From Halopiger xanaduensis SH-6 (GTDB taxonomy: Archaea > Halobacteriota > Halobacteria > Halobacteriales > Natrialbaceae): a stretch of 32,000 bases of DNA. The notes beneath the pieces are model-generated. The model saw nothing but the letters and a program-made list of their open reading frames with translations, did not search any database and had not been told where the DNA came from. Positions 1-17,820 of the stretch are shown here, in pieces. The DNA is taken from positions 290,270 to 322,269 of the forward strand of contig NC_015666.1 of the NCBI RefSeq assembly GCF_000217715.1. Direction: 5' to 3'. Numbering within the stretch: position 1 is the first letter of the stretch; each line of letters starts with the position of its first letter. The translations under genes and the position numbers were made by a program.

Positions 1-132
1 GTTGCAGTCAAAGAGGATATGCGGGGCAGCGGTCGGAGCGGAGTGAGAATTACCTGTAATCCGAATCAGGAGATCGATTTCGACGCGCTTGAATCTCAGG
101 CTCGGGAGATACTCGGCGAGACTACTGAGTGA
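1..132 (+). CDS. 3' end of an unidentified CDS entering from upstream of the window (last 43 codons)
   Basis: Frame 1 is open from base 1 to TGA at 130-132 (...CNPNQEIDFDALESQAREILGETTE*). Composition is acidic and halophile-like. It is convergent with the kwaB-like gene. No motif recognised. Confidence 0.3.
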   Translation, partial: VAVKEDMRGSGRSGVRITCNPNQEIDFDALESQAREILGETTE

Positions 133-134
133 GT

Positions 135-1145
135 CTATCCAGCATCTTGCTTTGAGAGCGAGATGTACTGCTCATTCGTAAGGGGCGAGTCGAGGTGATC
201 GTCGTTGAAGAAACGGAGAACAGCCCACACATCTCGTTTATCGTCCATTTTAATGGACATCTCTCCGTCACCGTTCTCCTCGAATTTCACGTCGGTATCG
301 AAGTTGTCGCGGATATACGCCGCGTCGTCTAAATCCATATCTTCGTACACGCCGCGTTCGTGTACCTTGTACATCAGTCTCAGCACACGGTTGTTCCCGT
401 ACACTGCCTCCTTGAACATCTCAAAGTCGTGGAAGGGGATGTCCGTTTCTTCGATTCGGTCTATGACGTCATCCGCACACCGCTCATACTCCGCGAGATA
501 ATCGAATATCTTCTCGAACCGAGACTGGTCGAAAATGTACATCATTCCATCGTAGTAGATGGAATCCACGCGGTCAGGGATCGAGATCAACGAGTCATCC
601 ACTTTCCGGTGTTTCTCACTTCCGACCAGCATACGAGCACGAGACGTTCGACCCATAATCTGGCGCCGACTGTAGTTTAGAAAGGCAATCGCCATCTGGT
701 CGTTGTCGGCATCTCGAATACGGATCGCTTGGAATTCGGGTTTCGGCGGCTCCGTATATGTCGTGTGACTAAACCGCTGTCCCTCCAGCAGGCGTTCGAA
801 GTTATCGAACTGAGGGATGTTCTCCGTGGGTTCGTACTGAACGAAGGTCTGGTCGCGATCGCGATTTTCGATGCCGTAATCCGAGAATCGAATGTTGTCG
901 CTTTCGAGCGCTGATTGCTTATGCTCGACCTTATCACGCACCAAATTCTCCAAGTCCTCTGGGAGCTCTTGATCTAACGAAATACGCTCAAACGTGTAGT
1001 CGTAGTCTTCAGCACTTTCCTCGTTCAGACGAGCCAGCAGCAGGTCGATCCCGAGTTCGCTGGTGTCGATGTCTTCGATCCGTTGGAGAAATGCAACCAG
1101 TTCGTCGAAGTGGTCTCGAGCGTCAACTCGGCTCGCTGAACTCAT
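135..1145 (-). CDS. kwaB: KwaB-like protein (DUF4868-type soluble partner of a Kiwa defence pair), 336 aa
   Basis: Its ATG shares one base with the stop of the upstream 4-TM gene (TAATG at 1143-1147). Size and gene order (small 4-TM protein followed by a ~320-340 aa soluble protein) match Kiwa. The C-terminal segment (VWAVLRFFNDDHLDSPLTNEQY) resembles what I recall of DUF4868. Not verified by profile search. Confidence 0.55.
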   Translation of the reverse strand: MSSASRVDARDHFDELVAFLQRIEDIDTSELGIDLLLARLNEESAEDYDYTFERISLDQELPEDLENLVRDKVEHKQSALESDNIRFSDYGIENRDRDQTFVQYEPTENIPQFDNFERLLEGQRFSHTTYTEPPKPEFQAIRIRDADNDQMAIAFLNYSRRQIMGRTSRARMLVGSEKHRKVDDSLISIPDRVDSIYYDGMMYIFDQSRFEKIFDYLAEYERCADDVIDRIEETDIPFHDFEMFKEAVYGNNRVLRLMYKVHERGVYEDMDLDDAAYIRDNFDTDVKFEENGDGEMSIKMDDKRDVWAVLRFFNDDHLDSPLTNEQYISLSKQDAG

Positions 1146-1714
1146 TATCTTGTGGTGATATAGACATCACTACTTATTCTTGCGGTATTGAGTGTCATGT
1201 CGTTCCCACTCAATTCCTGCTTGGTGAGGAGGATTCGTCTGTCGTGCTCAGTTTCGATTTCGTAGACGCGGTAGCGGAAGCCGATCAGAACCGGATTAAC
1301 GAACAAGCGGTTAGAGCGGATCACGATCGCGGCGACCGTGAGAAATAGCACGAGAAATGCTGCTACATCGTATATGTTCGAGAACTCGAACACGATGAAC
1401 GGGAAGATGTAGACTAAGAGGTATTCTGTGAACATATCCGACCGATTTCGGTAGTGCTCGATTTCGCTCAACTGGCCCTGTCTCGTGCGATTCATCCGTA
1501 TCATCAGAGCCAAGAAGACGACGCTAACCACGGTGAGAGCCGAGAAACCGAGCGAAAAATAGGATAACTCAACAGGCCCGATTCCGACGGGCTCCAGTTG
1601 GTACCCGAAAACCGAGTGGGTCGAATCGTGGGCGCGGAGGGCGACGATAGCGAAGAGCGGGCTATAGGAGCTCAGGAACAGGACGATCTTCGCCCAGCTC
1701 GGAATACGCCCCAT
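1145..1714 (-). CDS. kwaA: KwaA-like small membrane protein with four predicted TM helices, 189 aa
   Basis: Four hydrophobic segments: AKIVLFLSSYSPLFAIVAL, LSYFSLGFSALTVVSVVFLALMI, FTEYLLVYIFPFIVFEF, VAAFLVLFLTVAAIVI. Soluble C-terminal tail. Immediately upstream of, and overlapping, the kwaB-like gene. Confidence 0.55.
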   Translation of the reverse strand: MGRIPSWAKIVLFLSSYSPLFAIVALRAHDSTHSVFGYQLEPVGIGPVELSYFSLGFSALTVVSVVFLALMIRMNRTRQGQLSEIEHYRNRSDMFTEYLLVYIFPFIVFEFSNIYDVAAFLVLFLTVAAIVIRSNRLFVNPVLIGFRYRVYEIETEHDRRILLTKQELSGNDMTLNTARISSDVYITTR

Positions 1715-1866
1715 TAGGTTCGCTATGTTCTATTCGGAGGTCAAAGTCAGTTTTGTATCCACTTTCCGGAGAACATCACGGATACTGACCCGGCCGCTGT
1801 CCCAGAGTCTATGGACAATCTTCAAGACACCTCAATGGTTCTGCTTGAAACATCACTGAGTTTCGT

Positions 1867-4800
1867 ATGGACGGACAATCTACCCAACCCCGGAAGGCCC
1901 AGCTCGACAAGGAAGAACGCGAGCATCTCGAGGACGTCGTCACCGAGATGCGCGACCGCGTCGAGGCGAACGTTCGCTACCAGCTCGAGGACGAGTATGA
2001 CCTCGACGAGAAACCGGACGACGATGCGTCCCTAAGCGAGGAGCAGGAAGACCTCGTCGAGGCTATCGAACTCGAAGCCGTCGACGGGAATGATTGGGAC
2101 GACGGCTACGAGCAGTACATCACGGGCGTCGGCTACACGATCGTCAATCGGCTGGCCGCGCTCCGTTGTATGGAGGTTCGTGACTTCATCGACGACGAGG
2201 TCACGGCCTTCCGCGACGACGGCCTCACGCCAGCCGCCGACCGGCTGGTCACCGAGGAGTTCATGCTCGAGGAGGAAGCCGTCCTCGAAGCCTACAGGAA
2301 CGCGTGCGACGATCTCGCTGAGGAGATCGACATTCTCTTCGACCGCTCAACGGCCTACAGTCAGCTCGATCCCGACGACGACACCTACGAAGACCTCTGT
2401 GGGATGCTCGATGAGGTATCTGACGAGGTCTGGCGGGCCGACGACGTACTGGGCTGGGTCTACGAGTACTACAACGTCAATCTTCTTGACGATCTTCGAC
2501 GGAAGGGCGACCGTGAAGGACTAGAGCCTGAAGACGTGCCAGCAGCGAACCAGTTCTATACGCCGCACTGGGTCGTGCGGATGCTTACCGACAACTCGCT
2601 AGGGAAGCTCTATCTCGAAGACAACGGAACGCTGCAGGAGACGGTTGATAGACAGGACTCACTGACGCCCGACGAACGTAAGAATCGCCCACTATCCCCC
2701 GACGAGTCCCCAGATATTGCGGATTTCTGTACCTATCTCGTCCCATCTGAAGAGGAAGGTGAACCACCGGAGTTCGACGGCCCTGAAGACATCCGCGTCA
2801 TTGACCCGGCCTGTGGAAGCGGTCACTTCCTACTGTACGCGTTCGACGTGCTGGAGCGCATCTATCGGGCCGAAACAGATCTCGACCACGCCGAAATCCC
2901 ACGAGAGATTCTGCGGAACAACCTCTACGGCGTCGACCTTGATATGCGTGCCTGCCAACTCGCCGCGTTCAATCTCTATCTGAAGGGCCGGACGCGGGCC
3001 GAGGCCGAGGGCGCGAGCGGCTTCGATATGCCGGAGGTCGGCATCGTCTGTGCCGACGCGAAGGTGGCCGACATCGAGGGCGTTGAGGAGGTGTTCGACG
3101 AGGTGGCCGACGGGAAGTCAGACGTGGAGGATGCCCTCCGGCGTATCCTTGATGCGTTCGAGGAAGTTCACGGCCTCGGGAGTCTGCTGGACGTGCGTGG
3201 GACGCTCGGCGACCTGTTCGAGGACGACAGCGAGCAGGCCGGGGTTCAGATTACGCTCGGTGACGACCCGCGGGAGGATCACACGCTCGGGCAGATTCTA
3301 CACAGTCTGCGTGATGCAGTCGACCAACACCGGGAGGAGGATTCGTTCTTGGCGCAGGACTTGCGAAGCTTCGTCCGACTGCTAGACGTGCTGGCACAGG
3401 ACTATGATGTGGCGTTGATGAATCCGCCGTATGGGTCGAAGAATCGGATGCCAGACGTGGTGCAGGATTATGTTGAAGAGCACTATCGATACTCATCTGA
3501 GTTTTATATCAACTTCTTCGAGGTCTGTGATCGAGTGTCTAAGGAGGATGGGAGAATCGGGATGCTCGTTCCCCGGAGCTTTATGTACAAAAACCGGTAT
3601 CAAGACTTCCGCAGTGACTTTATTGGAGATGAGGGGAGTTTCGACTTCCTAGCTGAATATGGAATTGGCATCTTGGACAATGCCACCGTTCGGACAGTAG
3701 GTACTGTAGTCCAATCAGGAGCAAATCAGGGGTCTAAGGGGTCGTTCCTCCGACTTCACGATATACAAACTGAGCAGAAAGAGCAGGTATTCACTGAGGT
3801 TCTCTCTGATTCCAACGATAACGAGGTGATTCGTAGCTTCGATATTGAACTGCAAGAGTTCGATAAGATACCTCGCACCCCAATTTGTTACTCTATTCCT
3901 CAAGAAATCCGCGCGTTGCACGAATGTGAAACAAAACTGGACGCAGAGCACGCAGGGGTAGATGGAGAATCTATCTGTAACGCAGTTCCGGGACTTCAAA
4001 CAGCCGATGATGACCGTTTCGTCAGGCGATTCTGGGAGATTGACGATTATGAGGTTTTCAAACCGATTGCGAAGGGTGGAGCAGATGCATGGCTAGTCCC
4101 CCCGGTCACAGAGACTGTTGAGTGGAGTGGGAATGGAACCATTCTTAAACGTTCCAGCAAGTCGATCAGAACTCGGAACGAATCGCTATATGGCAACAAG
4201 GGACTGAGTTGGACTTACATAAAGGATACAGGTCGTCGATTCGGGTATTATCCGGGAGGCTTGTTCAGCCATACTGGTTTTATGCTCTTTCCCAAAACGG
4301 AGAAGTCTCTTTGGAAGATGATGGCCATACTGAATTCGACTCTCTACCACAATCTCTTTCTCTCACTGACGACAGAGCGGCACTGGAACGCAGGCGAGGT
4401 TGGTAGTGTTCCGTGGGTCGAATCGATTGATAAGCAAGACGGGTTGGAGTCTGCGGCTCGCGAGCAGTACGAAATTATGGTGGAACAGCGAGCAAATGAT
4501 CCATCGAGTCCCTACTATACAGGGCCGAGCCTACTTCCTACGGAAAGCGGCGATTCGTTCTACTCGCACCCACATTCGCGAAGTCTGTCGGAATCTGAGG
4601 CCTCAATCGATCCAAGCACCATATCGGTAAGTGACCCAATCAGACCTGCTGCACGAAAGGAGGAACAAGCCCGACTGAAGCGGCGTCAGCAGCTGGAGAA
4701 TCTATCCGAGCAGATAGATTCTCAGGTGTTCTCAGCGATCGAGCTTTCCAGCGAAGTTCAGGATAGAGCCCGACAGGAGATATTCCTCCGAACATCCGAA

Positions 4801-6192
4801 GACCCCGAAGATCGCGAAGTCCCCAACCCCGAATCCGTCCCTGAAGTCCCGGACAACCTTGACGAACAGGTTAAAGACCTTGTCCACCACTTCGCGATGA
4901 AAGCCGTCCGCGAGGAATCCGACGGCATCATTCCGCTCGAAGGTACGGACGAGCAGGCCGACATGCTCAACCACATCGTCGAGCAATTCGAGGACGCGTA
5001 CGGCGAGCACGCCGAAGACCGCCTCGTCGAGGTCGACGATATTCTCGGGGCCGAGTCCGCCGCCGACGAGGCGTACCCCAACCTCCGGTCGTTCATCGAG
5101 GACGAACTCTTCGCCTACCACGTCGACACGATGGAGAACACGCCCATCGTTTGGAAGCTTAGCACGGCGCGGCTCCTCGCCGACGCGAAGGGCGAGGGCT
5201 TCGCGTGCTTCGTCGACTACCACCAACTCGATGCCAGCCTATTCGACCGCCTGAGCAACCAGTATCTCGAACCGCGGAAAGCCGAACTCCGCGAGCGTCG
5301 GTCGGCAGCGAACCAACGTCGGAACAACGAGTCACTCTCCACAAGCGAACGCGCTGAGGCGACCGACGAGTTCGAGTTCTGCTCCAGTGCGCTCGAACAG
5401 ATCGCCGAACTCGAAGAGGTGATGCAGGAACTCGGCTCCACCAGTGAGCGCGAGTTCGACGACGACGATCGCGAACGCGTCAGCAAGCTAGCCCCCAAGG
5501 TCGCCGCGTTCCGCGAGGAGACCGCGGAGCGCATCGAGACGCTCAAACGACTCCGCGAAATGAACGGCGAGGAGTGGTTCCAAGACACCTTCTCCGATAA
5601 TTTCTGGAACGCCGTCGACGAGTGGCGTGACGAGTGGGTGGACGCTCTTGAGGAACTGGAACACGCTTGCGAGGAGTACGCCAAACCCAGCGACGAGCCC
5701 GTCGAAGCCCACCTTGCCGACCTCTTCGACTACTTCAACTGGCGGCTCAAAGGCTCGGATCATTACTCCAGCACGGGCATCCTCTTCATGACCTACTACT
5801 TCGAGCGCGAGGGGAGCGACCTCCTCGACGACGATGGTGAGCCGTTCGATAACCTCACCGAGGATGAGAAGCTGCTCGCCTCGCTCGCGACGGGTATCGA
5901 CGACGCATCCGTCCTTGACGAAGAGTACCTCCAACAGATTGCGGATGATGAAGGCGTCGACAACGTGGACGAGTTACCACCGCTAGCGGAGTTCAAGGCG
6001 CTCGCTGAGGAAATCGATGACCGCTGTCAGACGGTGGATAAGCAGATTCCCTCGGACTGGTCGGATCGTGCGCTATCGGAGATCACGACAGCGGGTTACC
6101 AGCCTGTCCACAAGCACGGCGTCGCGATCAATATTACACCGCTCGCGGAGAAGGACATCGTTCCGGAGGTAGTCGAAGACAAGGTACTGTAG
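1867..6192 (+). CDS. pglX: BREX PglX-type N6-adenine DNA methyltransferase, 1441 aa
   Basis: PglX-typical N-terminal blocks LGWVYEYYN and ANQFYTPHWVVRMLTDNSLG. AdoMet motif I VIDPACGSGHFLLYAF (nt 2797 onward). Motif IV LMNPPYG (NPPY at nt 3421-3432). C-terminal blocks TPIVWKLS...GFACFVDYHQLD and HGVAINITPL resemble PglX C-termini. ATG at 1867. Confidence 0.85.
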   Translation: MDGQSTQPRKAQLDKEEREHLEDVVTEMRDRVEANVRYQLEDEYDLDEKPDDDASLSEEQEDLVEAIELEAVDGNDWDDGYEQYITGVGYTIVNRLAALRCMEVRDFIDDEVTAFRDDGLTPAADRLVTEEFMLEEEAVLEAYRNACDDLAEEIDILFDRSTAYSQLDPDDDTYEDLCGMLDEVSDEVWRADDVLGWVYEYYNVNLLDDLRRKGDREGLEPEDVPAANQFYTPHWVVRMLTDNSLGKLYLEDNGTLQETVDRQDSLTPDERKNRPLSPDESPDIADFCTYLVPSEEEGEPPEFDGPEDIRVIDPACGSGHFLLYAFDVLERIYRAETDLDHAEIPREILRNNLYGVDLDMRACQLAAFNLYLKGRTRAEAEGASGFDMPEVGIVCADAKVADIEGVEEVFDEVADGKSDVEDALRRILDAFEEVHGLGSLLDVRGTLGDLFEDDSEQAGVQITLGDDPREDHTLGQILHSLRDAVDQHREEDSFLAQDLRSFVRLLDVLAQDYDVALMNPPYGSKNRMPDVVQDYVEEHYRYSSEFYINFFEVCDRVSKEDGRIGMLVPRSFMYKNRYQDFRSDFIGDEGSFDFLAEYGIGILDNATVRTVGTVVQSGANQGSKGSFLRLHDIQTEQKEQVFTEVLSDSNDNEVIRSFDIELQEFDKIPRTPICYSIPQEIRALHECETKLDAEHAGVDGESICNAVPGLQTADDDRFVRRFWEIDDYEVFKPIAKGGADAWLVPPVTETVEWSGNGTILKRSSKSIRTRNESLYGNKGLSWTYIKDTGRRFGYYPGGLFSHTGFMLFPKTEKSLWKMMAILNSTLYHNLFLSLTTERHWNAGEVGSVPWVESIDKQDGLESAAREQYEIMVEQRANDPSSPYYTGPSLLPTESGDSFYSHPHSRSLSESEASIDPSTISVSDPIRPAARKEEQARLKRRQQLENLSEQIDSQVFSAIELSSEVQDRARQEIFLRTSEDPEDREVPNPESVPEVPDNLDEQVKDLVHHFAMKAVREESDGIIPLEGTDEQADMLNHIVEQFEDAYGEHAEDRLVEVDDILGAESAADEAYPNLRSFIEDELFAYHVDTMENTPIVWKLSTARLLADAKGEGFACFVDYHQLDASLFDRLSNQYLEPRKAELRERRSAANQRRNNESLSTSERAEATDEFEFCSSALEQIAELEEVMQELGSTSEREFDDDDRERVSKLAPKVAAFREETAERIETLKRLREMNGEEWFQDTFSDNFWNAVDEWRDEWVDALEELEHACEEYAKPSDEPVEAHLADLFDYFNWRLKGSDHYSSTGILFMTYYFEREGSDLLDDDGEPFDNLTEDEKLLASLATGIDDASVLDEEYLQQIADDEGVDNVDELPPLAEFKALAEEIDDRCQTVDKQIPSDWSDRALSEITTAGYQPVHKHGVAINITPLAEKDIVPEVVEDKVL

Positions 6193-6361
6193 TCGATTAC
6201 GCGTTCGCTTGTCAGACAGTTCTTGAGGCGGTCTTCGACCTTTTGATTTGTTTACATTCTCGGATACTGATTTGAAAAATGCCGCTATGTTCATATATCA
6301 AACTGGAAACCAGCCTCTCGGCAAATCAGAAGACGGAACGAGAGCACTTCAACAGAACCGC

Positions 6362-7723
6362 CTACCAATATATCGCCGTGAAGCTGACCTCAAGATACCA
6401 CTCGTTACGCTCCCCTCCACGTGCGAGTGTTTCAAACTCTCTGGATAGAATCGCGTCTATCAAATCATCCCGCTTTGATTCATCGAGTTCATAGTCGTGG
6501 CTCCTGCTGTCTAGCTCACTTTCGAGTTTTTCAACCGCCTCCTCAATACCCTCGATCCTCGACGTTGTTTCGCCAGTATCCGAGAGGACAGATTGCACCA
6601 CATCCTCGGCTTCTTCCGCACTAACGTTAAGATTTGATTCGCCCTCAAGCTCATCAAGATAACTTTCCAACCGAGGTCGAAGCTCTATTTCATTCCCTTC
6701 ATCTACTGGAGCGCCGGGGTTTGCATCTTCGAATGTCTCCGGGATGTCATAAATCGACTCTCCAAGCCCAGATACTATCGAATCGACTACTGACAATAGC
6801 TTAATTGGCATCCACTCGTCTGAGACCTCATCACTGTCCAGCCGACAATAGACTGTGTACTCATCGTCGTCAAATAAGAACCTTGTTTCTTCTTGCCAGA
6901 ACTTGTCTGAATTTACAAATCCGACTATATTCAGAGGTTCACACTTGTTTTGGTACTCGGAAACGTAGTCCTCGTGTACGATGATGGGCTCATCGTCTTC
7001 AACTATGACACCATAGTTTTCTACTTCTCCCACAATTGGCACCAGCCCAGCTAACAGATGTTCGATAAGCTCGGAGAATGCCTCCAGCTCGCGCATTGAG
7101 AACTCTTCAGTATCGAGATGCCGAGAGAACTCTGATTCTTCGGGGAACAAGTCGAACATCTCTGCCATAGAACCGACTGCCGTATAGAAGTCATAAACCT
7201 CGTGAGAGCCAAGATTCACATTCACCTCCGCTAAGCTTCCTCTATCGAAATCGACCTCAGTTAGAGGTTCAGGCTCATCGTTTGATGTCAGGCGATCCCA
7301 GATCCGACGAGGAACGGACGCATGAGGCTCATATTCGTCAGATATGACCATATCATCAGCGCGCATTTCATACAGCTCCTTGAAATTCGACTGAATCACA
7401 TATCGGCGGACTGCCTCTGAACTGCTCTCCTTGGTAGCACCTATATTTGCGTTCAGAGATGATGTTTTATCGCCCAGTCCTCCCTTGATGCTTCCAGAAA
7501 TCTGACGGCGCTTTACTGTGCTTTTCTGCTCAGTGATGCCACCAGTAGTTGACGCGATCAGGCTAATTACGGAGGTTTCGTCAAGATAGACGAATTCACG
7601 GAGAGGTGGGACAGTTACATAACCTAATTTTGTCTTTGCCCAGTCTATCCCTCGTAGAGGAAGCCGAATAGTGGTGGCCGCTGCTCCTTTCACCCATGCG
7701 AGAATGCCCATATTATTCACCAC
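6362..7723 (-). CDS. Hypothetical 453-aa protein, translationally coupled partner of the AAA+ ATPase
   Basis: Long ORF with acidic composition. The start region overlaps or abuts the ATPase stop: GTG at 7723 or 7720, or ATG at 7711, against TAA at 7713-7715. The N-terminal block REFVYLDETSVISLIASTTGGITEQKS is followed by a G/S/K-rich linker. The C-terminus is an acidic coiled-coil-like tail. No catalytic motif recognised. Possible DUF6414/DolA-like N-terminus (unverified). Confidence 0.7.
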   Translation of the reverse strand: MVNNMGILAWVKGAAATTIRLPLRGIDWAKTKLGYVTVPPLREFVYLDETSVISLIASTTGGITEQKSTVKRRQISGSIKGGLGDKTSSLNANIGATKESSSEAVRRYVIQSNFKELYEMRADDMVISDEYEPHASVPRRIWDRLTSNDEPEPLTEVDFDRGSLAEVNVNLGSHEVYDFYTAVGSMAEMFDLFPEESEFSRHLDTEEFSMRELEAFSELIEHLLAGLVPIVGEVENYGVIVEDDEPIIVHEDYVSEYQNKCEPLNIVGFVNSDKFWQEETRFLFDDDEYTVYCRLDSDEVSDEWMPIKLLSVVDSIVSGLGESIYDIPETFEDANPGAPVDEGNEIELRPRLESYLDELEGESNLNVSAEEAEDVVQSVLSDTGETTSRIEGIEEAVEKLESELDSRSHDYELDESKRDDLIDAILSREFETLARGGERNEWYLEVSFTAIYW

Positions 7724-8930
7724 CGTTAGTATTCATTTGCATCATTAACCGCTCATGTGCCTTCAAGAGGTCAGAATGTCGAATCTCATCGCGGCCAGCT
7801 GCTACGCAGAGGACTCCTGCCTCGTTCAGTAACGCGCGTAGTTTTGCTCCCGTCCAGCCCTCTGTCCGAGACATCACTTGGTCAATATTTTCTTCAGTGA
7901 TTGTGTCTGAGAGATTGTATCCCTCCCGTAGAGTGTTGAAAATCTCTCTACGGTGTTCGTCACTAGGTCTCGGAAAATGTACTTGCCAGTCAAACCGACC
8001 CGGACGAAGCAACGCATCATCTATCTCATTGATTTGGTTGGTTGCAGCGATGACAAAGACGTTCTCCTGTGCTCCATCAAATCCATCAAGAACGGCTAGT
8101 AGTTGGGCAACAATCCGTTGGCTGAAATCTCGTGTGCCCTCTCCACCTCGATCGACGGCAATACTATCGATCTCATCGAAGAAGATTATCGAAGGACTCT
8201 CTTCTCGCGCATCGTCGAATATCTCGCGTATTAACCGTTCAGTGTCGCCAACACCTTTACTGACGATTTCAGGGCCCCGGATACGATAGAATTGTGCTGA
8301 AATCGACTCAGAAAGTATCCGAGCAAAGTGAGTCTTCCCTGTTCCCGGAGGCCCATAAAAAAGAGCACCCATCCGCGGTTCCGTTCCAACTGTGGAGAGG
8401 GCATCAGATTCTGTCAGAAATAGCTCGACACGTTCACGAAACTGTTCTTGCGGAGTAGTCATACCCCCAAAGTCCTTGAAGGTCAGTTCTTTCTCCTCAT
8501 CTCCATCTTGCCCGCTCGATCTGCTCTCCTTGAAGGAATTAATCAGGGACTCATTGTCTGGCCCGAAGAGAGACAGAGAAGGATCGATCCCGGGATGTAC
8601 ATCAACGATCATATTCCTACTGATCTCAACGGCGGCGCCCGGTTCCACGTTGATGTTCCTCGGATTCGGTATTTTCTGCGTGACTCCATTAATTTCCACG
8701 ATCGCAGCACCATCAAGTTGTTTCTTCACCGTCCCTAACTCACTTCTTTCTATAGAATCTGGCTTTGCCATCCCCTCAAAGGTCAAATCATCACCATTTA
8801 GTTTAATCATGTCACCGGCGCTAAGATCGGCCTTAGTGACAATGTCGAAAATACCCCCGGTGGAAAGCTCTACGGTATATTGACCACTGTCTAACTCCTC
8901 ACGTACCGTGGCGTAGACCAGACTAGACAT
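7713..8930 (-). CDS. Classical-clade AAA+ ATPase (CDC48/FtsH-like single AAA module) with a ~190-aa beta-rich N-domain, 405 aa
   Basis: Walker A GPPGTGKT, Walker B IIFFDEID, sensor-1 VIAATN, second region of homology ALLRPGRFD, and a C-terminal helical lid. The N-terminal 190 aa are beta-strand-like (VYATVREELDSGQYTVELS...AIVEINGVTQKI). Confidence 0.9.
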   Translation of the reverse strand: MSSLVYATVREELDSGQYTVELSTGGIFDIVTKADLSAGDMIKLNGDDLTFEGMAKPDSIERSELGTVKKQLDGAAIVEINGVTQKIPNPRNINVEPGAAVEISRNMIVDVHPGIDPSLSLFGPDNESLINSFKESRSSGQDGDEEKELTFKDFGGMTTPQEQFRERVELFLTESDALSTVGTEPRMGALFYGPPGTGKTHFARILSESISAQFYRIRGPEIVSKGVGDTERLIREIFDDAREESPSIIFFDEIDSIAVDRGGEGTRDFSQRIVAQLLAVLDGFDGAQENVFVIAATNQINEIDDALLRPGRFDWQVHFPRPSDEHRREIFNTLREGYNLSDTITEENIDQVMSRTEGWTGAKLRALLNEAGVLCVAAGRDEIRHSDLLKAHERLMMQMNTNGGE

Positions 8931-8959
8931 TCTTGTTACTGGTTGTATCTGTACAGTTT

Positions 8960-8971
8960 GGTATTAATACC
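8960..8971. promoter_or_regulatory. Perfect 12-bp palindrome GGTATTAATACC, a TATA-like element or operator upstream of the AAA+ ATPase gene
   Basis: The sequence GGTATTAATACC is its own reverse complement. It lies ~30 nt upstream of the ATPase ATG (8930, minus strand), in the 279-bp divergent region shared with pglZ. The A/T core fits an archaeal TATA box. Confidence 0.35.
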
Positions 8972-9209
8972 CTTCATATTCAGAGCGCAGCAGTCCCGTC
9001 AACCGAAGCTTCATCGGAACTTTGGCCATTATGTGGAAGTCTCGGGTCATCAACTCAAATTCCTGTCCAGTAGCCTCGTCGATCTCCTCCACAGTCGAGG
9101 CCTCAAAGTCATCGTATGACTGAGGCGCTGACGAAGCTATTAAAATATTGGCGAGAGCGTGATAACATAGTCCCAGTAATTTCTCCGAATCTGACTACTC
9201 GTTTCATCC

Positions 9210-11402
9210 ATGCAAGCAAGCAAATCCCTTCCAGACGCCGCGAAAAGCACCATCCGAAGCAAGTTCGACCGCGCCGAGTCGTCAGATCCGATCATCCTCT
9301 GGTGGGACGACGGGAACTATCTCGAGGACATCATCGAGCAGGCCTGTAACGAACTCGGCGTTGAGCTGAAAGTCGCCGACGAAACCCCGCTGGAACTCCG
9401 TGCCAATCCGGTCGACGGTGAACAGGTCTGGTACGTCCCACACGTCAAAGATCCCGAAGACGCCGAGGGGGAGTACGACTGGTTCCGCGACGTTGAGCAC
9501 ACGGGCGGCGAGGTGGAGATGAGCATCGAAGACCTCACCGTCCACGCGTTCGAGCGCGGACAACTCGATGCGTGGGAGCTGAAAACCGCGACGCAGGCGG
9601 ACGACCCCGCGAAGCGTCGCGAGATCGCGCGGATTCTCCACGACCAGCTCACCGGTGGGCAGCTCCCGACGCTCGAACAGCTCCGCACGCAGATCGTCAC
9701 CGGCGGCTACACCGACCCGGTCGCGTTCGTGCTGGAGAACGGCTGGGGCGACATCGACGACAGCCCCGACACTATCGAGCAGATGCAGGACTTGCTCACC
9801 AGCGAGGGCGTCGACGCGGTCGCCAGCGAGGACGAACCCGTGGGGATCGTCGCGGCGACGCGTCGGTGGGCAGTCGCCGAGTGGCTGATCCACGCCGGCG
9901 CCGACGCCGAACGCTTCCCGAGGGAGTTCCGCGCCGAGACGGCCGGCGACCACGACCTCCCCGAGCTCAAGTCGCTTCTAAACAACACCACCTCGGCCAG
10001 CCTCCTCGCCGACCGCTACCTCGGCGAGGCGATCTGGCCCGAGGTCGTCGCGGACGTCGACGACCCGTGGGAACTCGCGGACTGTATCGTCGACGCCGCG
10101 CTCGAGCGTCGCCTCTGGGAGGAGTGGCACGCGTCCTTCGACGCCGGCGACTACGAGACGTGTCTCGAGCGCGCCGAGGAGCGGTACGACGCCCTCCTTG
10201 GCAGCGAAGACTTCCGTGGCACCTACCGAGGAGCCTACGGCCCGGACAGCCCGTGGACGCAGACTTGGGAACAGGCCGCGGAGATCGCTCGGCTCGCGCA
10301 CCAGCTCGAGACGTGGGACGAGAGCGCGCCTGACGACGTCGTCTCGCTGTACGCCGACCCCGACGACGGCACGTGGCAGATCGACAACGCGGTGCTCAAC
10401 CTCGTTGTCGCCGGCGAGCCCGAGTCCGATCTCCCAGACGATCATCCCGCGACCGCCGCGCTCGACGACCTCCGCACCCAACTCCAGTCGGAATACGTCG
10501 AGTACCTCGAAGACCTCGGCGACCTCGTCACGGAGACCGTCGAAGCTGGCGCTCCGTTCGTCGAGGAGGATCACTCCTACCAGTTCTTCACGAAGGAGTC
10601 CGACGGTCTCGAAAGCGGCCAGACGGTCGCGCTGTTCGTCATCGACGCCCTTCGACTCGATCTCGCTCGCCGGCTCGCGGACGAGTTGCGCGACTACGTG
10701 GCGACACTCCCGGCCGACGCCCCCGAGTTTGCCATCGACGAAGACGTCTGGCTCGGAACGCTTCCTTCGGAGACTGAGTTCGGGAAGGCTGCGCTCACGC
10801 CGGGGGAGATCCAGATGTTCGACGTCTCGCTGGTCGACGGCGAGTTACAGCCGCTTCGAAACAACCGTCGGGTGACGACCAACCGCCGCGAGTCGCTGTT
10901 GGGCGGCGACGGCTGGACGGTCACTCGCGAGGAGGACGACGGCTGGCAGTCGACGCGTGTCGCCTACTTCAAGAACGACATCGACGACATCGGCGAGAAG
11001 GAACTCAGCGACCTCGAGGCGATGCTGGCCCGACGCGTCGACTCGCTCGCGGAGTTCATCGGCACGAAACTCGAACAGGGCGAGTGGGATCAGGCCTACG
11101 TGCTGACCGACCACGGGTTCGTCCTGCTCCCGGACAACGCGTCGCCGGAGAAAATTTCGCGCCCGGCGGAAGCATCTGACTCCGGGCGCCGATGGATCGC
11201 TGGGGAAAATGTGGACGAGGATTCGCCCGGCGTGTTGCTCGACTCCAGCTCACGACTGGGCTATCTCGATGCCAACGTCAGCGTCCTTGCCAGCCCACTC
11301 AAGCGGTTCAGAAAGCAGGGGCTCGGTGACGCTCGGTTCTACCACGGCGGACTGCTCCCACAGGAGTTCGTGCTTGACTTCATCAGCATCACGCAGGGCT
11401 AA
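9210..11402 (+). CDS. pglZ: PglZ-domain protein (alkaline-phosphatase superfamily, BREX component), 730 aa
   Basis: N-terminal block IILWWDDGNYLEDI. PglZ core VALFVIDALRLDLARRLADEL, and later AYVLTDHGFVLL (DHG metal-site-like motif). Same strand as pglX and the downstream helicase. Confidence 0.8.
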   Translation: MQASKSLPDAAKSTIRSKFDRAESSDPIILWWDDGNYLEDIIEQACNELGVELKVADETPLELRANPVDGEQVWYVPHVKDPEDAEGEYDWFRDVEHTGGEVEMSIEDLTVHAFERGQLDAWELKTATQADDPAKRREIARILHDQLTGGQLPTLEQLRTQIVTGGYTDPVAFVLENGWGDIDDSPDTIEQMQDLLTSEGVDAVASEDEPVGIVAATRRWAVAEWLIHAGADAERFPREFRAETAGDHDLPELKSLLNNTTSASLLADRYLGEAIWPEVVADVDDPWELADCIVDAALERRLWEEWHASFDAGDYETCLERAEERYDALLGSEDFRGTYRGAYGPDSPWTQTWEQAAEIARLAHQLETWDESAPDDVVSLYADPDDGTWQIDNAVLNLVVAGEPESDLPDDHPATAALDDLRTQLQSEYVEYLEDLGDLVTETVEAGAPFVEEDHSYQFFTKESDGLESGQTVALFVIDALRLDLARRLADELRDYVATLPADAPEFAIDEDVWLGTLPSETEFGKAALTPGEIQMFDVSLVDGELQPLRNNRRVTTNRRESLLGGDGWTVTREEDDGWQSTRVAYFKNDIDDIGEKELSDLEAMLARRVDSLAEFIGTKLEQGEWDQAYVLTDHGFVLLPDNASPEKISRPAEASDSGRRWIAGENVDEDSPGVLLDSSSRLGYLDANVSVLASPLKRFRKQGLGDARFYHGGLLPQEFVLDFISITQG

Positions 11403-11421: not shown

Positions 11422-12699
11422 ATGTCATCACAGGAAATAGAAGAAGCGACCACCGCAATTCGGAGTCACATCGTCGACTTTCTGACGACGCTCGATGATC
11501 AGATGGACGAGCCACGGCTCAGTGAGATCGTCGAGGCAGACGGCACACTTCAGAGCAAGAATCTTGGCCAAACACCGGAGCGGTGTGTCGAAGATGCTCT
11601 CATCTGGCCGATTCTGGAGACGCTCGGCTACGAGTACACACCACGACCGTACTATCCCGTCGGTGACAGCGATGAACAGCCGGATTTCCGAATCGACAAT
11701 CTCTCTGAAACGGTTATCGGGGAGAACAAATCGGTCAACAACTTCGAAACCGCGCAGGGTGACATTGAGGGCTACCTCGACTCACGCCGATACGAGTACG
11801 GGATCTCGAGTGACGGATTCCGTTGGGGAATGTACGCCGTTGAAACGGATGAACGCGGTCAAGCAGACCTCGTCACCGTCGTCGAAGACCAGAACATCGC
11901 ACCAGCGGTACGACGGATTGCCCGCAATCAAGGATTAGTCAGCTACACCGAAGAGTTGCAGGAAAACAGTACCGTCAAAGGAGTGTTGGGAGACTTCTAC
12001 CAGACATTCAATCACTACGGTATCCGGCGAGCTATCGGTGGACTAACCGAGTTTTACGACCTCTACTTGGAGGTGACTACCGGCGGTGGTGAATACCAGC
12101 ATCTGGACTCGACTCTCGTGGACGCAATCGAGGAGCCGGCAGACGCCTCAAAGTCGGAGAAACTGGCCTTCGCGGCACTACTCGTTGATCGACTCGCCTT
12201 TGTGAAACTGCTGGCAGATCGCGGTATCCTCGACCGCGTCGCGCTCCACGCCCAGTGGAGTGAGCATAATCAGGGGCTCAATCGGTTCCGTGGAAGCTTC
12301 TACTCTCAATACCTCCAGCCGTTGTTCTACGATGCGCTTTCGACTCCAAAACAGCAGCGCGACGACGAACTTCCAGAGATGTTCAGCGACGTACCGTACC
12401 TCGGCGGAGGATTGTTCGAGTCGATACTGCCGGCCGAACGTGCCTTCGATGTCCCAGATTCGGTAATGAAGCCAGTTCTCACGCAATTCATCGAGAACGA
12501 AGAACGGACGTTGGTCAATGAAGCCGCCGCGGGTTCCATTCTGGAGACGTACACGGAGGAGTTTGAGAGTCGGGAGCTGGCTGGACAGATACCACAGTAC
12601 TACGCCGACATTGTAGATGCCTACGGTGCAGAGATCGAGTACGTTGAGTCGGAGATCGAACGTACCCTACGGTCGTTCGTCGCAACGGAGGCTCGATAA
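11422..12699 (+). CDS. PD-(D/E)xK nuclease-like (HSDR_N-type) domain plus the helical GGLF domain of type IIG/ISP restriction enzymes, without a methyltransferase domain, 425 aa
   Basis: ATG at 11422, 19 nt after the pglZ stop. I discarded the longer 11209 start, which overlaps pglZ with an S/R/C-rich extension. Motifs: E57 (CVEDALIWPILETLGY), D88 (QPDFRI, nt 11683-11685), E101-x-K103 (VIGENK, nt 11722-11730), then QGDIEGY...YGISSDGFRWGMY. Helical-spacer signatures RLAFVKLLADRGIL and VPYLGGGLFES. No FxGxG or NPPY motif. Confidence 0.6.
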   Translation: MSSQEIEEATTAIRSHIVDFLTTLDDQMDEPRLSEIVEADGTLQSKNLGQTPERCVEDALIWPILETLGYEYTPRPYYPVGDSDEQPDFRIDNLSETVIGENKSVNNFETAQGDIEGYLDSRRYEYGISSDGFRWGMYAVETDERGQADLVTVVEDQNIAPAVRRIARNQGLVSYTEELQENSTVKGVLGDFYQTFNHYGIRRAIGGLTEFYDLYLEVTTGGGEYQHLDSTLVDAIEEPADASKSEKLAFAALLVDRLAFVKLLADRGILDRVALHAQWSEHNQGLNRFRGSFYSQYLQPLFYDALSTPKQQRDDELPEMFSDVPYLGGGLFESILPAERAFDVPDSVMKPVLTQFIENEERTLVNEAAAGSILETYTEEFESRELAGQIPQYYADIVDAYGAEIEYVESEIERTLRSFVATEAR

Positions 12700-16006: not shown

Positions 16007-17047
16007 TTGCCCCTTCGAGGTTCTCCAGAGAGAGTGGGAAAGATAGAGACAACGGACATCACGGTACGAGTGTTGGGGCCGCCCAAATTTGACCGACACG
16101 GCAACCACGAGGTTCCCGTTGAAGACGCCGACGGACGAGTTTCCGATCTCAGGGTGTGGAGTAAGCACCACGGACAAGTCGAGTGGCGGGTCGGCTCGAT
16201 GTACGATTTAGTAGAGGTCAAGCGGAATCCCGTCGAGGCCAACAAGGCCCAGTACGAGACCGCTGCGAATACACAGATTTCGAGAGTAGGACATCCACAG
16301 GATCCGGAAGTGAGCCTTCTCCACGTGAGCGATACCCATCTCGGTCGTCCTCTGACCGACAAGGAACACATGGGGAACGCGAATCAGCTGGAGCGATTTC
16401 TCGATGCGGTCAATCTCGCGGTCAAATCTCGAGTGGATGCGATCATCCACACTGGCGACATCTTCGACGACGATGTCGATGAAGCGACCGTGCAGACCGT
16501 CGAAGAACATGTCGAGTTGTTGGCCGACGCCGGTATTCCGATCTACTACGTTCGAGGCAATCACGGGTGCGACCGAGGGGACGCGTTTCTTCAATCACAG
16601 ACCGAGGCAGGACGAATGATACATCTCTCAAGTGAGCCTCAGTTGCTCGGTAAGGGAACTCTCGCCCTCTACGGGATGGATGCCGATGCATCTGTGAACG
16701 GACTCTCAGAAGTAGCTCCTGTCGGTGACGCACCACAGGACGCGTACCGGCTGTTGGCGTGGCACGAGGCCGTCGAGCCCATCGCCAGAGATGGAATCTC
16801 AATTGGGGAGCTGGTGGACGCCAGCGAAGTCGAACTGGATGCTCTCGCCCTCGGCGACCTGCACAAGCACAAGCGAGCCTACATCGGTGATGTCTACAAG
16901 GACAGCGGGAAACGGTTTCGTGCGTTCTACGCCGGCGCGACGACGGGCATCGCGCGGAACTCAGAAGGGTACGAACCAGCTGCGTGGCTGCTACAGATAA
17001 CTAACGGTACGCTTGAGCGACATCGACTACCCCTTCGACCTCGGTAG
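16007..17047 (+). CDS. Fusion of an OB-fold-like N-domain with an Mre11/SbcD-type calcineurin-like metallophosphoesterase, 346 aa
   Basis: Phosphoesterase motifs in order: LLHVSDTHLG (DxH), IHTGDIFD (GD), YYVRGNHG (GNH), LLAWHEAV (H), ALGDLHKH (GDxH). The first ~100 aa (ITVRVLGPP...VEDADGRVSDLRVWS...GSMYDLVEVK) follow an OB-fold strand pattern. Start uncertain: TTG at 16007 or GTG at 16034. Confidence 0.75.
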   Translation: MPLRGSPERVGKIETTDITVRVLGPPKFDRHGNHEVPVEDADGRVSDLRVWSKHHGQVEWRVGSMYDLVEVKRNPVEANKAQYETAANTQISRVGHPQDPEVSLLHVSDTHLGRPLTDKEHMGNANQLERFLDAVNLAVKSRVDAIIHTGDIFDDDVDEATVQTVEEHVELLADAGIPIYYVRGNHGCDRGDAFLQSQTEAGRMIHLSSEPQLLGKGTLALYGMDADASVNGLSEVAPVGDAPQDAYRLLAWHEAVEPIARDGISIGELVDASEVELDALALGDLHKHKRAYIGDVYKDSGKRFRAFYAGATTGIARNSEGYEPAAWLLQITNGTLERHRLPLRPR

Positions 17048-17181
17048 TGGCCTTCCTCCACGAGAGCCACACGAATCTATTCGAACTACGGACTGAGCAG
17101 AGGCGTCGAGCAAATATCTGCTGAAAGTGGGTACTTCTCCCGGGCCGGCATACAAGTAGGAGCAGTGGCGCCAGATCTAGT

Positions 17182-17820
17182 ATGGCCGCACACGAGGGGT
17201 GTAAGGTCGAACGCGTCACCGAGAGGTACGACCTGCACGAAGCCGATGAGCGCCTGCTTCGCCGCCGAGAAAACGAAGACGCCAGTCTCCGAGAACTCGA
17301 AACCCATCTGAACAGGCGGCTGCTCAAGAGAGAGATGTTCGAACAGGGGATGAGTCCCCTTGATGGCGAGGTCGAGAACTACTATCGGCTCCTCACGGAT
17401 GACACGGTGATGACTACTGCGCGTCGAGAGGCACGCCGAAAGCTCGAGGAGGCGGGAATCGACGTGGACGGAGTTAAGGCCGATTTCGTCTCGTACCAGA
17501 CTGTCCGTAAACACCTCAACGAGTGTCTCGACAAGGACACTAGTGAAGAATACACGCCGAAGCCAGACAACGACCGCAGAAACATCGAGAAGATTCAGCA
17601 GCGACTCCAGAAGGTCGTGGAAAAATCAGTCAGGCGCCTGACGGAGCACGACGTCATTCAGATCGGTTCGCCTGAAGCCACCGTCTCGGTGAAAGTCACT
17701 TGTGGCGATTGCGGACGTACCTACGGGATTACCACGCTATTTCGACGCCGCGAGTGTCCGTGTGTTGCCAACGAGAGTGATGCGGCTGCCTCGGAACAGA
17801 AGGCTACTAACTTGAACTAG
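17182..17820 (+). CDS. rdfA: RdfA-like protein (haloarchaeal rod-determining-factor-A family) with a C-terminal Cys cluster, 212 aa
   Basis: CKVERVTERYDL...SLRELETHLNRRLL...GMSPLDGEVENYYRLLTDD...ARRKLEEAGIDVDGVKADFVSYQTVRKHL, followed by VTCGDCGRTYG...RRECPC. This matches the conserved layout I recall for proteins annotated RdfA. Family call is from memory, not a search. Confidence 0.55.
   Translation: MAAHEGCKVERVTERYDLHEADERLLRRRENEDASLRELETHLNRRLLKREMFEQGMSPLDGEVENYYRLLTDDTVMTTARREARRKLEEAGIDVDGVKADFVSYQTVRKHLNECLDKDTSEEYTPKPDNDRRNIEKIQQRLQKVVEKSVRRLTEHDVIQIGSPEATVSVKVTCGDCGRTYGITTLFRRRECPCVANESDAAASEQKATNLN

Follow-up and report, generated by a model that had tools for sequence, protein, structure and literature searches.

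The window analysed here is a 32,000-nucleotide (nt) stretch of the Halopiger xanaduensis SH-6 genome (NC_015666.1, positions 290,270 to 322,269). It carries a bacteriophage exclusion (BREX) locus of the BREX-5 type, in which two minus-strand genes lie between the plus-strand genes pglX and pglZ. The first encodes an AAA+ ATPase and the second a long-form protein of the DUF6414 family, hereafter the partner. This ATPase–DUF6414 pair is our subject, and its features and those of the surrounding locus are collected in Table 1.

The ATPase–DUF6414 pair and its slot in BREX-5

The partner ATG (7711-7709) lies one base past the TAA of the ATPase gene and is the likely start, and a public assembly with an identical partner protein uses the same starts for both genes. 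An alternative GTG at 7723, which would give a protein of 453 amino acids (aa) and an 11-nt overlap with the ATPase gene, is less likely. Across related loci the two genes usually overlap by 4 nt. The open reading frames (ORFs) thus confirm both the coordinates and the coupling of the two minus-strand genes that an earlier note on this DNA had placed between pglX and pglZ. The partner gene of that note also stands, its length of 453 aa giving way to the likelier 449 aa of the public assembly.

The 3.0-kb cargo segment has a G+C content of 48.0%, against 58.1% in the remainder of the window. G+C content at third codon positions (GC3) is 47-49% in the ATPase and partner genes, compared with 69% in pglX, 84% in pglZ and 78% in brxHII. 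The two genes form a translationally coupled operon of foreign codon composition, and the lower G+C relative to the BREX flanks, first estimated by hand in the earlier note, is borne out. Low G+C is not confined to the pair, as the Kiwa genes upstream of pglX are also G+C-poor (51-52%). The middle of pglX is poorer still, with 47-50% G+C where the adjoining intervals have 56-63%, and could be an exchanged target-recognition region.

Table 1 Features of the window. Positions are those of the 32,000-nt stretch; control elements called candidates are predicted from sequence alone.
Feature	Positions	Strand	Details
AAA+ ATPase gene, operon gene 1	7713-8930	-	405 aa; ATG start; TAA stop 7715-7713
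Long-form DUF6414 gene (partner), operon gene 2	6362-7711	-	449 aa plus stop
Cargo segment, pglX stop to pglZ start	6193-9209	.	both genes and their own flanking control regions
Candidate archaeal TATA box TATTAATA	8962-8969	-	32-39 nt upstream of the ATPase ATG
Candidate archaeal terminator, T5 run	6275-6279	-	about 85 nt past the DUF6414 stop
ATPase N-domain, residues 1-112	8595-8930	-	two small β-barrels, 4-54 and 64-112 (AlphaFold2)
Walker A GPPGTGKT, residues 193-200	8331-8354	-	invariant in 69 homologues
Pore loop 1 SKGVGD, residues 224-229	8244-8261	-	Gly in place of the usual aromatic
Walker B IIFFDEID, residues 248-255	8166-8189	-	from sequence and family alignment
REFVYLDE motif of the partner, residues 38-45	7577-7600	-	signature N-terminal block; the family's most conserved motif
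C-terminal extension of the partner	6365-6679	-	acidic helical bundle, residues 345-431, and terminal β-strand ending ...AIYW
pglX, left flank, BREX-5	1867-6192	+	1441 aa; PADLOC PglX PDLC02518, full length; sister loci annotated BREX-5 PglX
Middle of pglX	3501-4500	+	G+C-poor
pglZ, right flank, BREX-5	9210-11402	+	730 aa; PADLOC PglZ PDLC02562, full length
kwaB (Kiwa)	135-1145	-	PADLOC E 1e-19
kwaA (Kiwa)	1145-1714	-	PADLOC E 5e-26
425-aa ORF	11422-12699	+	pglZ-brxHII interval
Metallophosphoesterase and RdfA homologue	16007-17820	+	346 aa and 212 aa; after brxHII
AddAB-like pair	22954-28447	+	873 aa and 959 aa; 8-nt overlap

The flanks of the pair are strongly conserved in other haloarchaea. 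Seven haloarchaeal plasmids encode a PglZ 94-96% identical to that of the window, annotated "BREX-5 system phosphatase PglZ". In blastn comparisons of the window with six sister BREX-5 loci, the match breaks off at the pglX stop (6181-6238) and picks up again exactly at the pglZ start (9209/9210). The intervening slot holds a 143-aa ORF in Halobacterium sp. BOL4-2, a 176-aa ORF in Halorubrum ezzemoulense and H. salinarum PHS3, and a 68-aa ORF with an 822-aa LmuB-like SMC ATPase in Halorhabdus tiamatea. Natrinema thermotolerans and Halorubrum trapanicum carry a minus-strand pair composed of an OLD/GajA/AriA-like nuclease-ATPase and an uncharacterised 820-aa protein. Because the slot holds other cargo in these sister loci, the pair is best seen as an independent mobile module and not as a stand-in for BrxC or BrxL. 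The acquired, self-contained cassette that had been proposed to nest in the BREX locus is thus supported by the breaks in homology at the pglX stop and pglZ start and by the varying cargo.

Searches around 6193-9209 for direct and inverted repeats, target-site duplications and terminal inverted repeats returned only short matches at chance level. A transposon-type insertion of the cassette is accordingly unsupported; recombination between conserved flanking sequences offers the simplest and more likely route of exchange. Inserts of at least four kinds alternate in this slot while its flanks stay nearly identical, which makes it a place to look for new archaeal defence genes. The OLD-like slot pair (locus L087, 7613-11845; locus L082, 11621-15845) matches PADLOC Old at 3e-38, its 820-aa protein has no PADLOC match, and the two genes are a candidate for a second two-gene defence module.

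The earlier note had also considered that the pair substitutes for a missing BrxC or BrxL ATPase, as an accessory arm of this BREX-5. BREX needs an ATPase, the pair sits inside the array, and the absence of brxC beside the locus is real, as brxA, brxB and both copies of brxC are missing from their expected place upstream of pglX in this genome. The order in BOL4-2 is brxA, brxC, brxB, brxC, a NucS-like gene, Kiwa and pglX, while in the genome of the window HNH(-repeat), DUF6036 and MarR/TrmB-type genes precede the NucS-like gene (stretch L001, 17580-21350, and window positions 1-1866). Nearly the same truncated layout is seen in Halorhabdus tiamatea pHTIA, where brxA/B/C are lacking and the MarR and DUF6036 genes recur upstream, yet the slot carries a different gene. 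Sister loci with upstream DNA in view keep brxB and brxC, the genes at the brxC position encoding proteins of 1227-1280 aa annotated as hypothetical, yet their slot too holds other cargo. The pair moreover lies on the opposite strand with foreign GC3, and the PADLOC matches of its ATPase include neither BrxC, an ATPase of about 1200 aa, nor the Lon-like BrxL. Since it is found without BREX genes almost everywhere else, in dozens of bacterial and archaeal genomes, the pair is not a BREX component, and we consider its substitution for BrxC or BrxL very improbable.

Conservation and architecture of the pair

A profile search run exhaustively over 1.84 billion representatives yields 821 clusters of the DUF6414 protein at 50% identity, and more than 200 homologues of the partner, of about 450 aa, are detectable. 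The pair is rare and patchily distributed, with 133 confirmed loci among 185,579 species genomes (one genome each), or about 0.07%. Its hosts include Halobacteria, Actinomycetota, Chloroflexota, Acidobacteriota, Alphaproteobacteria and others, spanning at least five bacterial phyla. For the analysis of synteny, 80 of the 133 confirmed loci were fetched. An ATPase orthologue lies directly upstream of the DUF6414 gene, on the same strand, in 78 of these 80, and the other two loci end at a contig edge. The 78 ATPase matches range from E 1e-17 to 1e-172, the weakest being genes split or shortened in assemblies. Pairwise identities of ATPase and partner are strongly correlated (Spearman 0.86, 2346 pairs), indicating that the two genes are inherited together, and no third conserved gene was found across the loci examined. 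The window pair shares this arrangement, with the ATPase gene directly upstream, on the same strand and abutting a DUF6414 gene of about 450 aa that ends in ...IYW. The co-occurrence of the two genes, which had been raised as a check on the pair, is thus confirmed, and we are very nearly certain that they constitute a conserved independent module. No relative of the long DUF6414 clade was found among the viral contigs of IMG/VR or in PHROGs, and a provirus or phage origin was rejected on this basis.

The same distribution bears on whether the two proteins are a housekeeping protein-quality-control ATPase and its adaptor, encoded in the core genome, an outcome that the earlier note had named as counting against a defence module. 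The ATPase does resemble proteasomal and Cdc48 unfoldases. However, a core-genome operon does not fit so sparse an occurrence, the varying neighbourhoods, the foreign codon composition or an ATPase that lacks both a coiled coil and the HbYX (hydrophobic-Tyr-any)/GQYL tail, and we regard this explanation as exceedingly improbable.

The ATPase matches Pfam AAA (PF00004) at 3e-41 and AAA_lid_3 at 5e-9. The Walker A and B motifs, sensor-1 (N298) and the arginine fingers (R309 and R312) are all intact and invariant in the family, and the protein is accordingly predicted to be a single-ring classical AAA motor competent for ATP hydrolysis. Its closest solved relatives in a sequence search of the PDB are VAT, Cdc48, p97 and Afg2 (E ~1e-95). 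Such matches are confined to residues ~124-396, and mostly to 142-385; no PDB chain matches the N-domain by sequence. In the AlphaFold2 model (predicted local distance difference test (pLDDT) 76 overall) the two barrels of the N-domain are built with moderate confidence (~70-84). A Foldseek search with this model retrieves proteasomal Rpt subunits and the mycobacterial Mpa at E 1e-25 to 1e-28, with Rpt the best at 5e-28, and Mpa, which also has two barrels, aligns with the query from end to end (453-461 columns). The N-domain is probably a substrate- or partner-binding ring above the motor. No N-terminal coiled coil was found in the ATPase, whose model opens with a β-strand at residue 4, and the C-terminus (...MQMNTNGGE) carries no HbYX/GQYL proteasome-docking tail. 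With its motifs, Pfam domains and two modelled barrels, the protein is indeed the complete classical AAA+ module with a β-rich N-domain first read from the sequence.

Pore loop 1 sets the window ATPase apart from most of its family. The aromatic residue of the SKW.G motif is W or F in 67 of 69 homologues in the family alignment. Glycine at this position is limited to the window ATPase and the haloarchaeal clade closest to it, at 59-87% identity; an intermediate clade has Met. The glycine-bearing clade may therefore work as a switch and not as a processive translocase. With its naturally occurring Trp-to-Gly change, the haloarchaeal pore loop already provides a means of testing whether substrates must be threaded.

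The partner matches Pfam DUF6414 (PF19952) at E 3.3e-45 and 155.5 bits, passing the gathering cut-off of 25 bits, over residues 37-344 and model positions 1-247 of 283. Within the REFVYLDE block, E39, F40, Y42 and D44 show little or no variation. The ~30 residues ahead of the block have a basic and aromatic character throughout the family, with a mean net charge of +6.3, and the block is followed by a segment rich in Gly, Ser and Lys (residues 60-94) of low model confidence. At the far end of the protein, none of 70 sequences departs from Y448 and W449. The AlphaFold2 model, built from an alignment of 112 sequences (pLDDT 72), runs from an N-terminal helix through the REFVYLDE strand, the Gly/Ser/Lys segment and a mixed α/β core to the helical bundle and the AIYW strand, with the C-terminal extension at pLDDT 86-95 over most of its length. 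The conserved N-terminal block, Gly/Ser/Lys-rich segment and acidic C-terminal part that the earlier note had picked out are all recovered in this architecture.

A fold search of the PDB with the partner model gave only weak PriB/SSB-like fragments (best E 0.43), and a PDB sequence-profile search with the DUF6414 family found no relative. Fold and profile searches revealed no recognisable catalytic motif in the partner, and it has no peptidase Pfam match and no PADLOC match even at E<=1. Its first description as an unknown protein without a catalytic motif therefore holds for the motif; Pfam and NCBI already name it a DUF6414 family protein. A PD-(D/E)xK-type nuclease reading of its conserved acidic and basic residues was set aside for want of fold or profile support. 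The invariant A-I-Y-W terminus (residues 447-449 at 6365-6373, minus strand) formally fits HbYX, the pattern by which proteasomal ATPases dock on 20S particles, although it stands on the partner and not on the ATPase. A proteasome-docking function of I-Y-W was rejected, as AlphaFold2 places this strand inside the β-sheet core (pLDDT ~93), and the likeness is probably coincidental. Most of the bacterial phyla that host the pair would moreover be expected to lack 20S proteasomes.

Possible roles of the pair and other genes of the locus

A DUF6414 protein is a component of Dodola, a system composed of DolA (DUF6414) and the ClpB-like DolB (PMC11514479; 10.1101/2024.10.26.620412). DolA/DolB confers measured phage resistance (10.1101/2022.05.11.491447, supplement; 10.1101/2024.10.22.618286), and Dodola was still "largely uncharacterized" in March 2026 (PMC13078230). 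The explanation that we somewhat favour for the present locus is a self-contained, horizontally mobile module of an ATPase followed by a long-form DUF6414 protein, which would be a divergent relative of Dodola carried as cargo in the pglX-pglZ slot of BREX-5. An antiviral or anti-mobile-element function, exerted independently by the pair, is likely. At 83% identity, its closest relative is surrounded by genes for a resolvase, a GmrSD/HNH protein, a GIY-YIG protein and a DpnII-like restriction enzyme. The 124 neighbours recorded at 37 loci of bacteria and archaea include strong matches to cyclases and effectors of the cyclic-oligonucleotide-based anti-phage signalling system (CBASS), to type III and IIG restriction-modification, and to GajB, HmaA/DrmD, AbiEii and serine recombinases. 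A survey of neighbourhoods, as suggested in the earlier note, thus finds defence and mobility genes among the neighbours.

Several observations weigh against a divergent Dodola relative with a defensive role. The 124 neighbours also include the housekeeping genes RNR, Pol III alpha and PheRS, some haloarchaeal homologues lie amid metabolic genes or in an island of hypothetical genes and small ORFs with no defence neighbour, and the defence-neighbour matches at the 37 loci are raw, uncorrected for genomic background. An effector role of the DUF6414 protein is a guess, because its model has neither a structural relative nor a recognisable catalytic site, and the pore-loop glycine of the window ATPase suits processive threading poorly. 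The PADLOC DolA model (PDLC03837) misses the window partner even at E<=1 and matches 6 of 70 partner relatives, weakly (best E 9e-4). Setting the long-clade profile against validated DolA with hhalign and hmmsearch gives no significant result either; the link to Dodola therefore runs only through the shared Pfam model, and we claim no direct pairwise homology.

A module of this kind could instead stabilise the mobile element or plasmid that carries it, with a DUF6414 toxin held in check by an ATPase that unfolds or sequesters it and no dedicated antiviral role. Such a toxin-antitoxin-like or addiction module would account for genes that are tightly coupled, mobile, patchily distributed and often found beside recombinases and on plasmids, and the partner has no catalytic motif pointing to a defence mechanism. 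On the other hand, the homologous DolA/DolB family gives measured phage resistance (10.1101/2024.10.22.618286), and a BREX-5 cargo slot with Kiwa and OLD-like genes is a typical placement for defence genes. We therefore consider an addiction module unlikely, although addiction and defence roles are not mutually exclusive.

For the mobile ATPase–DUF6414 module that we favour, one mechanism can be proposed, tentatively and with some doubt. The ATPase would assemble into a hexamer whose β-barrel ring binds the DUF6414 partner, or a viral protein that the partner presents. ATP-driven remodelling would then toggle the DUF6414 protein, taken to be the subunit that confers specificity or acts as effector, from inert to active or back. 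Its basic aromatic N-terminal helix and Gly/Ser-rich segment, the latter as in DolA, could engage a membrane or nucleic acid, which is speculation.

The surrounding BREX-5 locus offers several observations in its own right. The stretch just upstream of pglX is a second variable slot, occupied by a complete Kiwa pair in the window, by the same Kiwa insertion in BOL4-2 and by an AriA/OLD-like ATPase in PHS3. The BOL4-2 orthologue of the NucS-like gene is the PADLOC candidate PDC-S11. Between pglZ and brxHII lies a 425-aa ORF whose sole Pfam match, to DUF7814, is weak and below threshold; the 496-aa version listed from 11209 extends too far and runs into pglZ. Every BREX-5 locus whose gene table shows that stretch has an unnamed ORF at the corresponding place (425 aa in four of them and 511 aa in BOL4-2), and the gene looks like an uncharacterised core component of BREX-5. 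Downstream of brxHII are a calcineurin-like metallophosphoesterase and a homologue of RdfA (rod-determining factor A; Pfam 3e-64). Further on, an AddAB-like pair combines an 873-aa PD-(D/E)XK nuclease with a UvrD-type helicase-nuclease of 959 aa. In BOL4-2, PHS3 and pHTIA the same pair accompanies BREX-5, suggesting that the two are linked either functionally or by hitch-hiking.

Comparison with known systems

Unrelated defence genes nest in BREX loci, as does the GmrSD-type BrxU in the pEFER BREX locus of Escherichia fergusonii. The present case differs in that the host array is an archaeal BREX-5 and in that cargo of at least four kinds is exchanged in one slot between loci whose flanks are nearly identical. 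By structure, the best matches of the ATPase are PAN, Rpt1-6 and Mpa/ARC, with which it shares one or more β-barrel (OB-like) N-domains stacked on a single classical AAA ring; the window ATPase lacks their N-terminal coiled coil, HbYX/GQYL tail and pore-loop aromatic.

By PADLOC model, the best match of the ATPase is IetA (PDLC02196, E 1.2e-37), over the AAA core only (residues 167-395), and this match is present in all 69 of 69 ATPase family members. IetA belongs to Ietswaart, which is composed of an AAA ATPase, IetA, and a subtilase, IetS (Gao et al. 2020). Like the present pair, it has two genes, one of them for a small AAA ATPase of the classical type. In the PADLOC test the N-domains show no relation, and since the partner here is not a serine protease, the pair is not Ietswaart.

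Dodola shares the most with the pair. Both are two-gene operons of a DUF6414-family protein and an AAA+ ATPase of ~360-400 aa, and both occur in defence islands. The validated DolA and DolB sequences from B. cereus FM1, taken from the supplement of the preprint describing Dodola (Millman et al. 2022; 10.1101/2022.05.11.491447), allow a closer comparison. DolA (256 aa) matches Pfam DUF6414 at 1e-21 and 78.2 bits over model positions 2-282. It also carries the N-terminal block (hydrophobic-hydrophobic-Y-hydrophobic-D-E-x-S, reading VVYFDESS in DolA) followed by a Gly/Ser-rich segment.

The differences begin with the motor. DolB (362 aa) is of the AAA_2, Clp/Hsp100 type (8e-20), whereas the window ATPase combines PF00004 and AAA_lid_3 with an Mpa-like double β-barrel. 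Its AAA_2 match (6e-4) falls under the cut-off, the PADLOC DolB model reaches only the P-loop (28 residues, E 3e-4), and hhalign against DolB gives 44% probability over the generic core. In all systems examined from Table S21 of the same preprint dolA lies upstream of dolB, whereas here and in 78 related loci the ATPase gene comes first. The window partner is nearly twice as long as DolA (449 aa against 256 aa), owing in part to an extension at its C-terminus that is helical, and it ends in an invariant YW. The hosts differ as well: the pair occurs in Halobacteria, Actinomycetota, Chloroflexota, Acidobacteriota and Alphaproteobacteria, whereas Dodola is found mostly in Firmicutes.

These points bear on whether the pair is simply classical Dodola (DolA and DolB) in an archaeon, covered by existing definitions. 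The shared Pfam family and the similar size of the two AAA+ ATPases favour this possibility, as does a survey that reports Dodola in Euryarchaeota (10.1101/2024.10.26.620412). However, one euryarchaeal case reported in the literature is a gut Methanobrevibacter, and Table S21 of the describing preprint (10.1101/2022.05.11.491447) contains no Halobacteria, Euryarchaeota or Chloroflexi. In view also of the motor type, the P-loop-only DolB match, the reversed gene order and the longer partner missed by the PADLOC DolA model, classical Dodola is a decidedly unlikely reading. The earlier suggestion of a distant Dodola-like system thus survives in part: the partner matches DUF6414 (3e-45), as DolA does, so that the proposed similarity is confirmed at the level of PF19952, though not by direct profile comparison, whereas the ATPase type, the gene order and the PADLOC models do not follow Dodola. 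Because only the DUF6414 component and the two-gene logic are shared, we file the pair as a Dodola variant and not as a member of Dodola.

We lean slightly towards regarding this variant as a functional antiviral system in its own right, to be called "type II Dodola", with the Clp motor of classical Dodola replaced by a proteasome-type AAA ring and a distribution over Archaea and at least five bacterial phyla that is unseen by PADLOC. If so, DUF6414, a fold without a solved relative, would be a conserved effector or sensor core that can be driven by any unfoldase, and the pglX-pglZ junction of archaeal BREX-5 would be a dedicated hotspot for the exchange of defence-gene cargo. That two unrelated AAA+ families, Clp-type and proteasome-type, partner DUF6414 suggests that the motor is interchangeable and generic and that DUF6414 is the core; its action would need an ATP-driven remodeller, but no particular one. 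DUF6414 thus pairs with AAA+ motors of two kinds that are not orthologous, in either gene order and in both prokaryotic domains, which offers a comparative handle on mechanism. As PADLOC misses the long clade, surveys based on it undercount the family, notably in Halobacteria, Actinomycetota and Chloroflexota. The pair is not categorically new, but extends Dodola-type systems to Halobacteria and several bacterial phyla.

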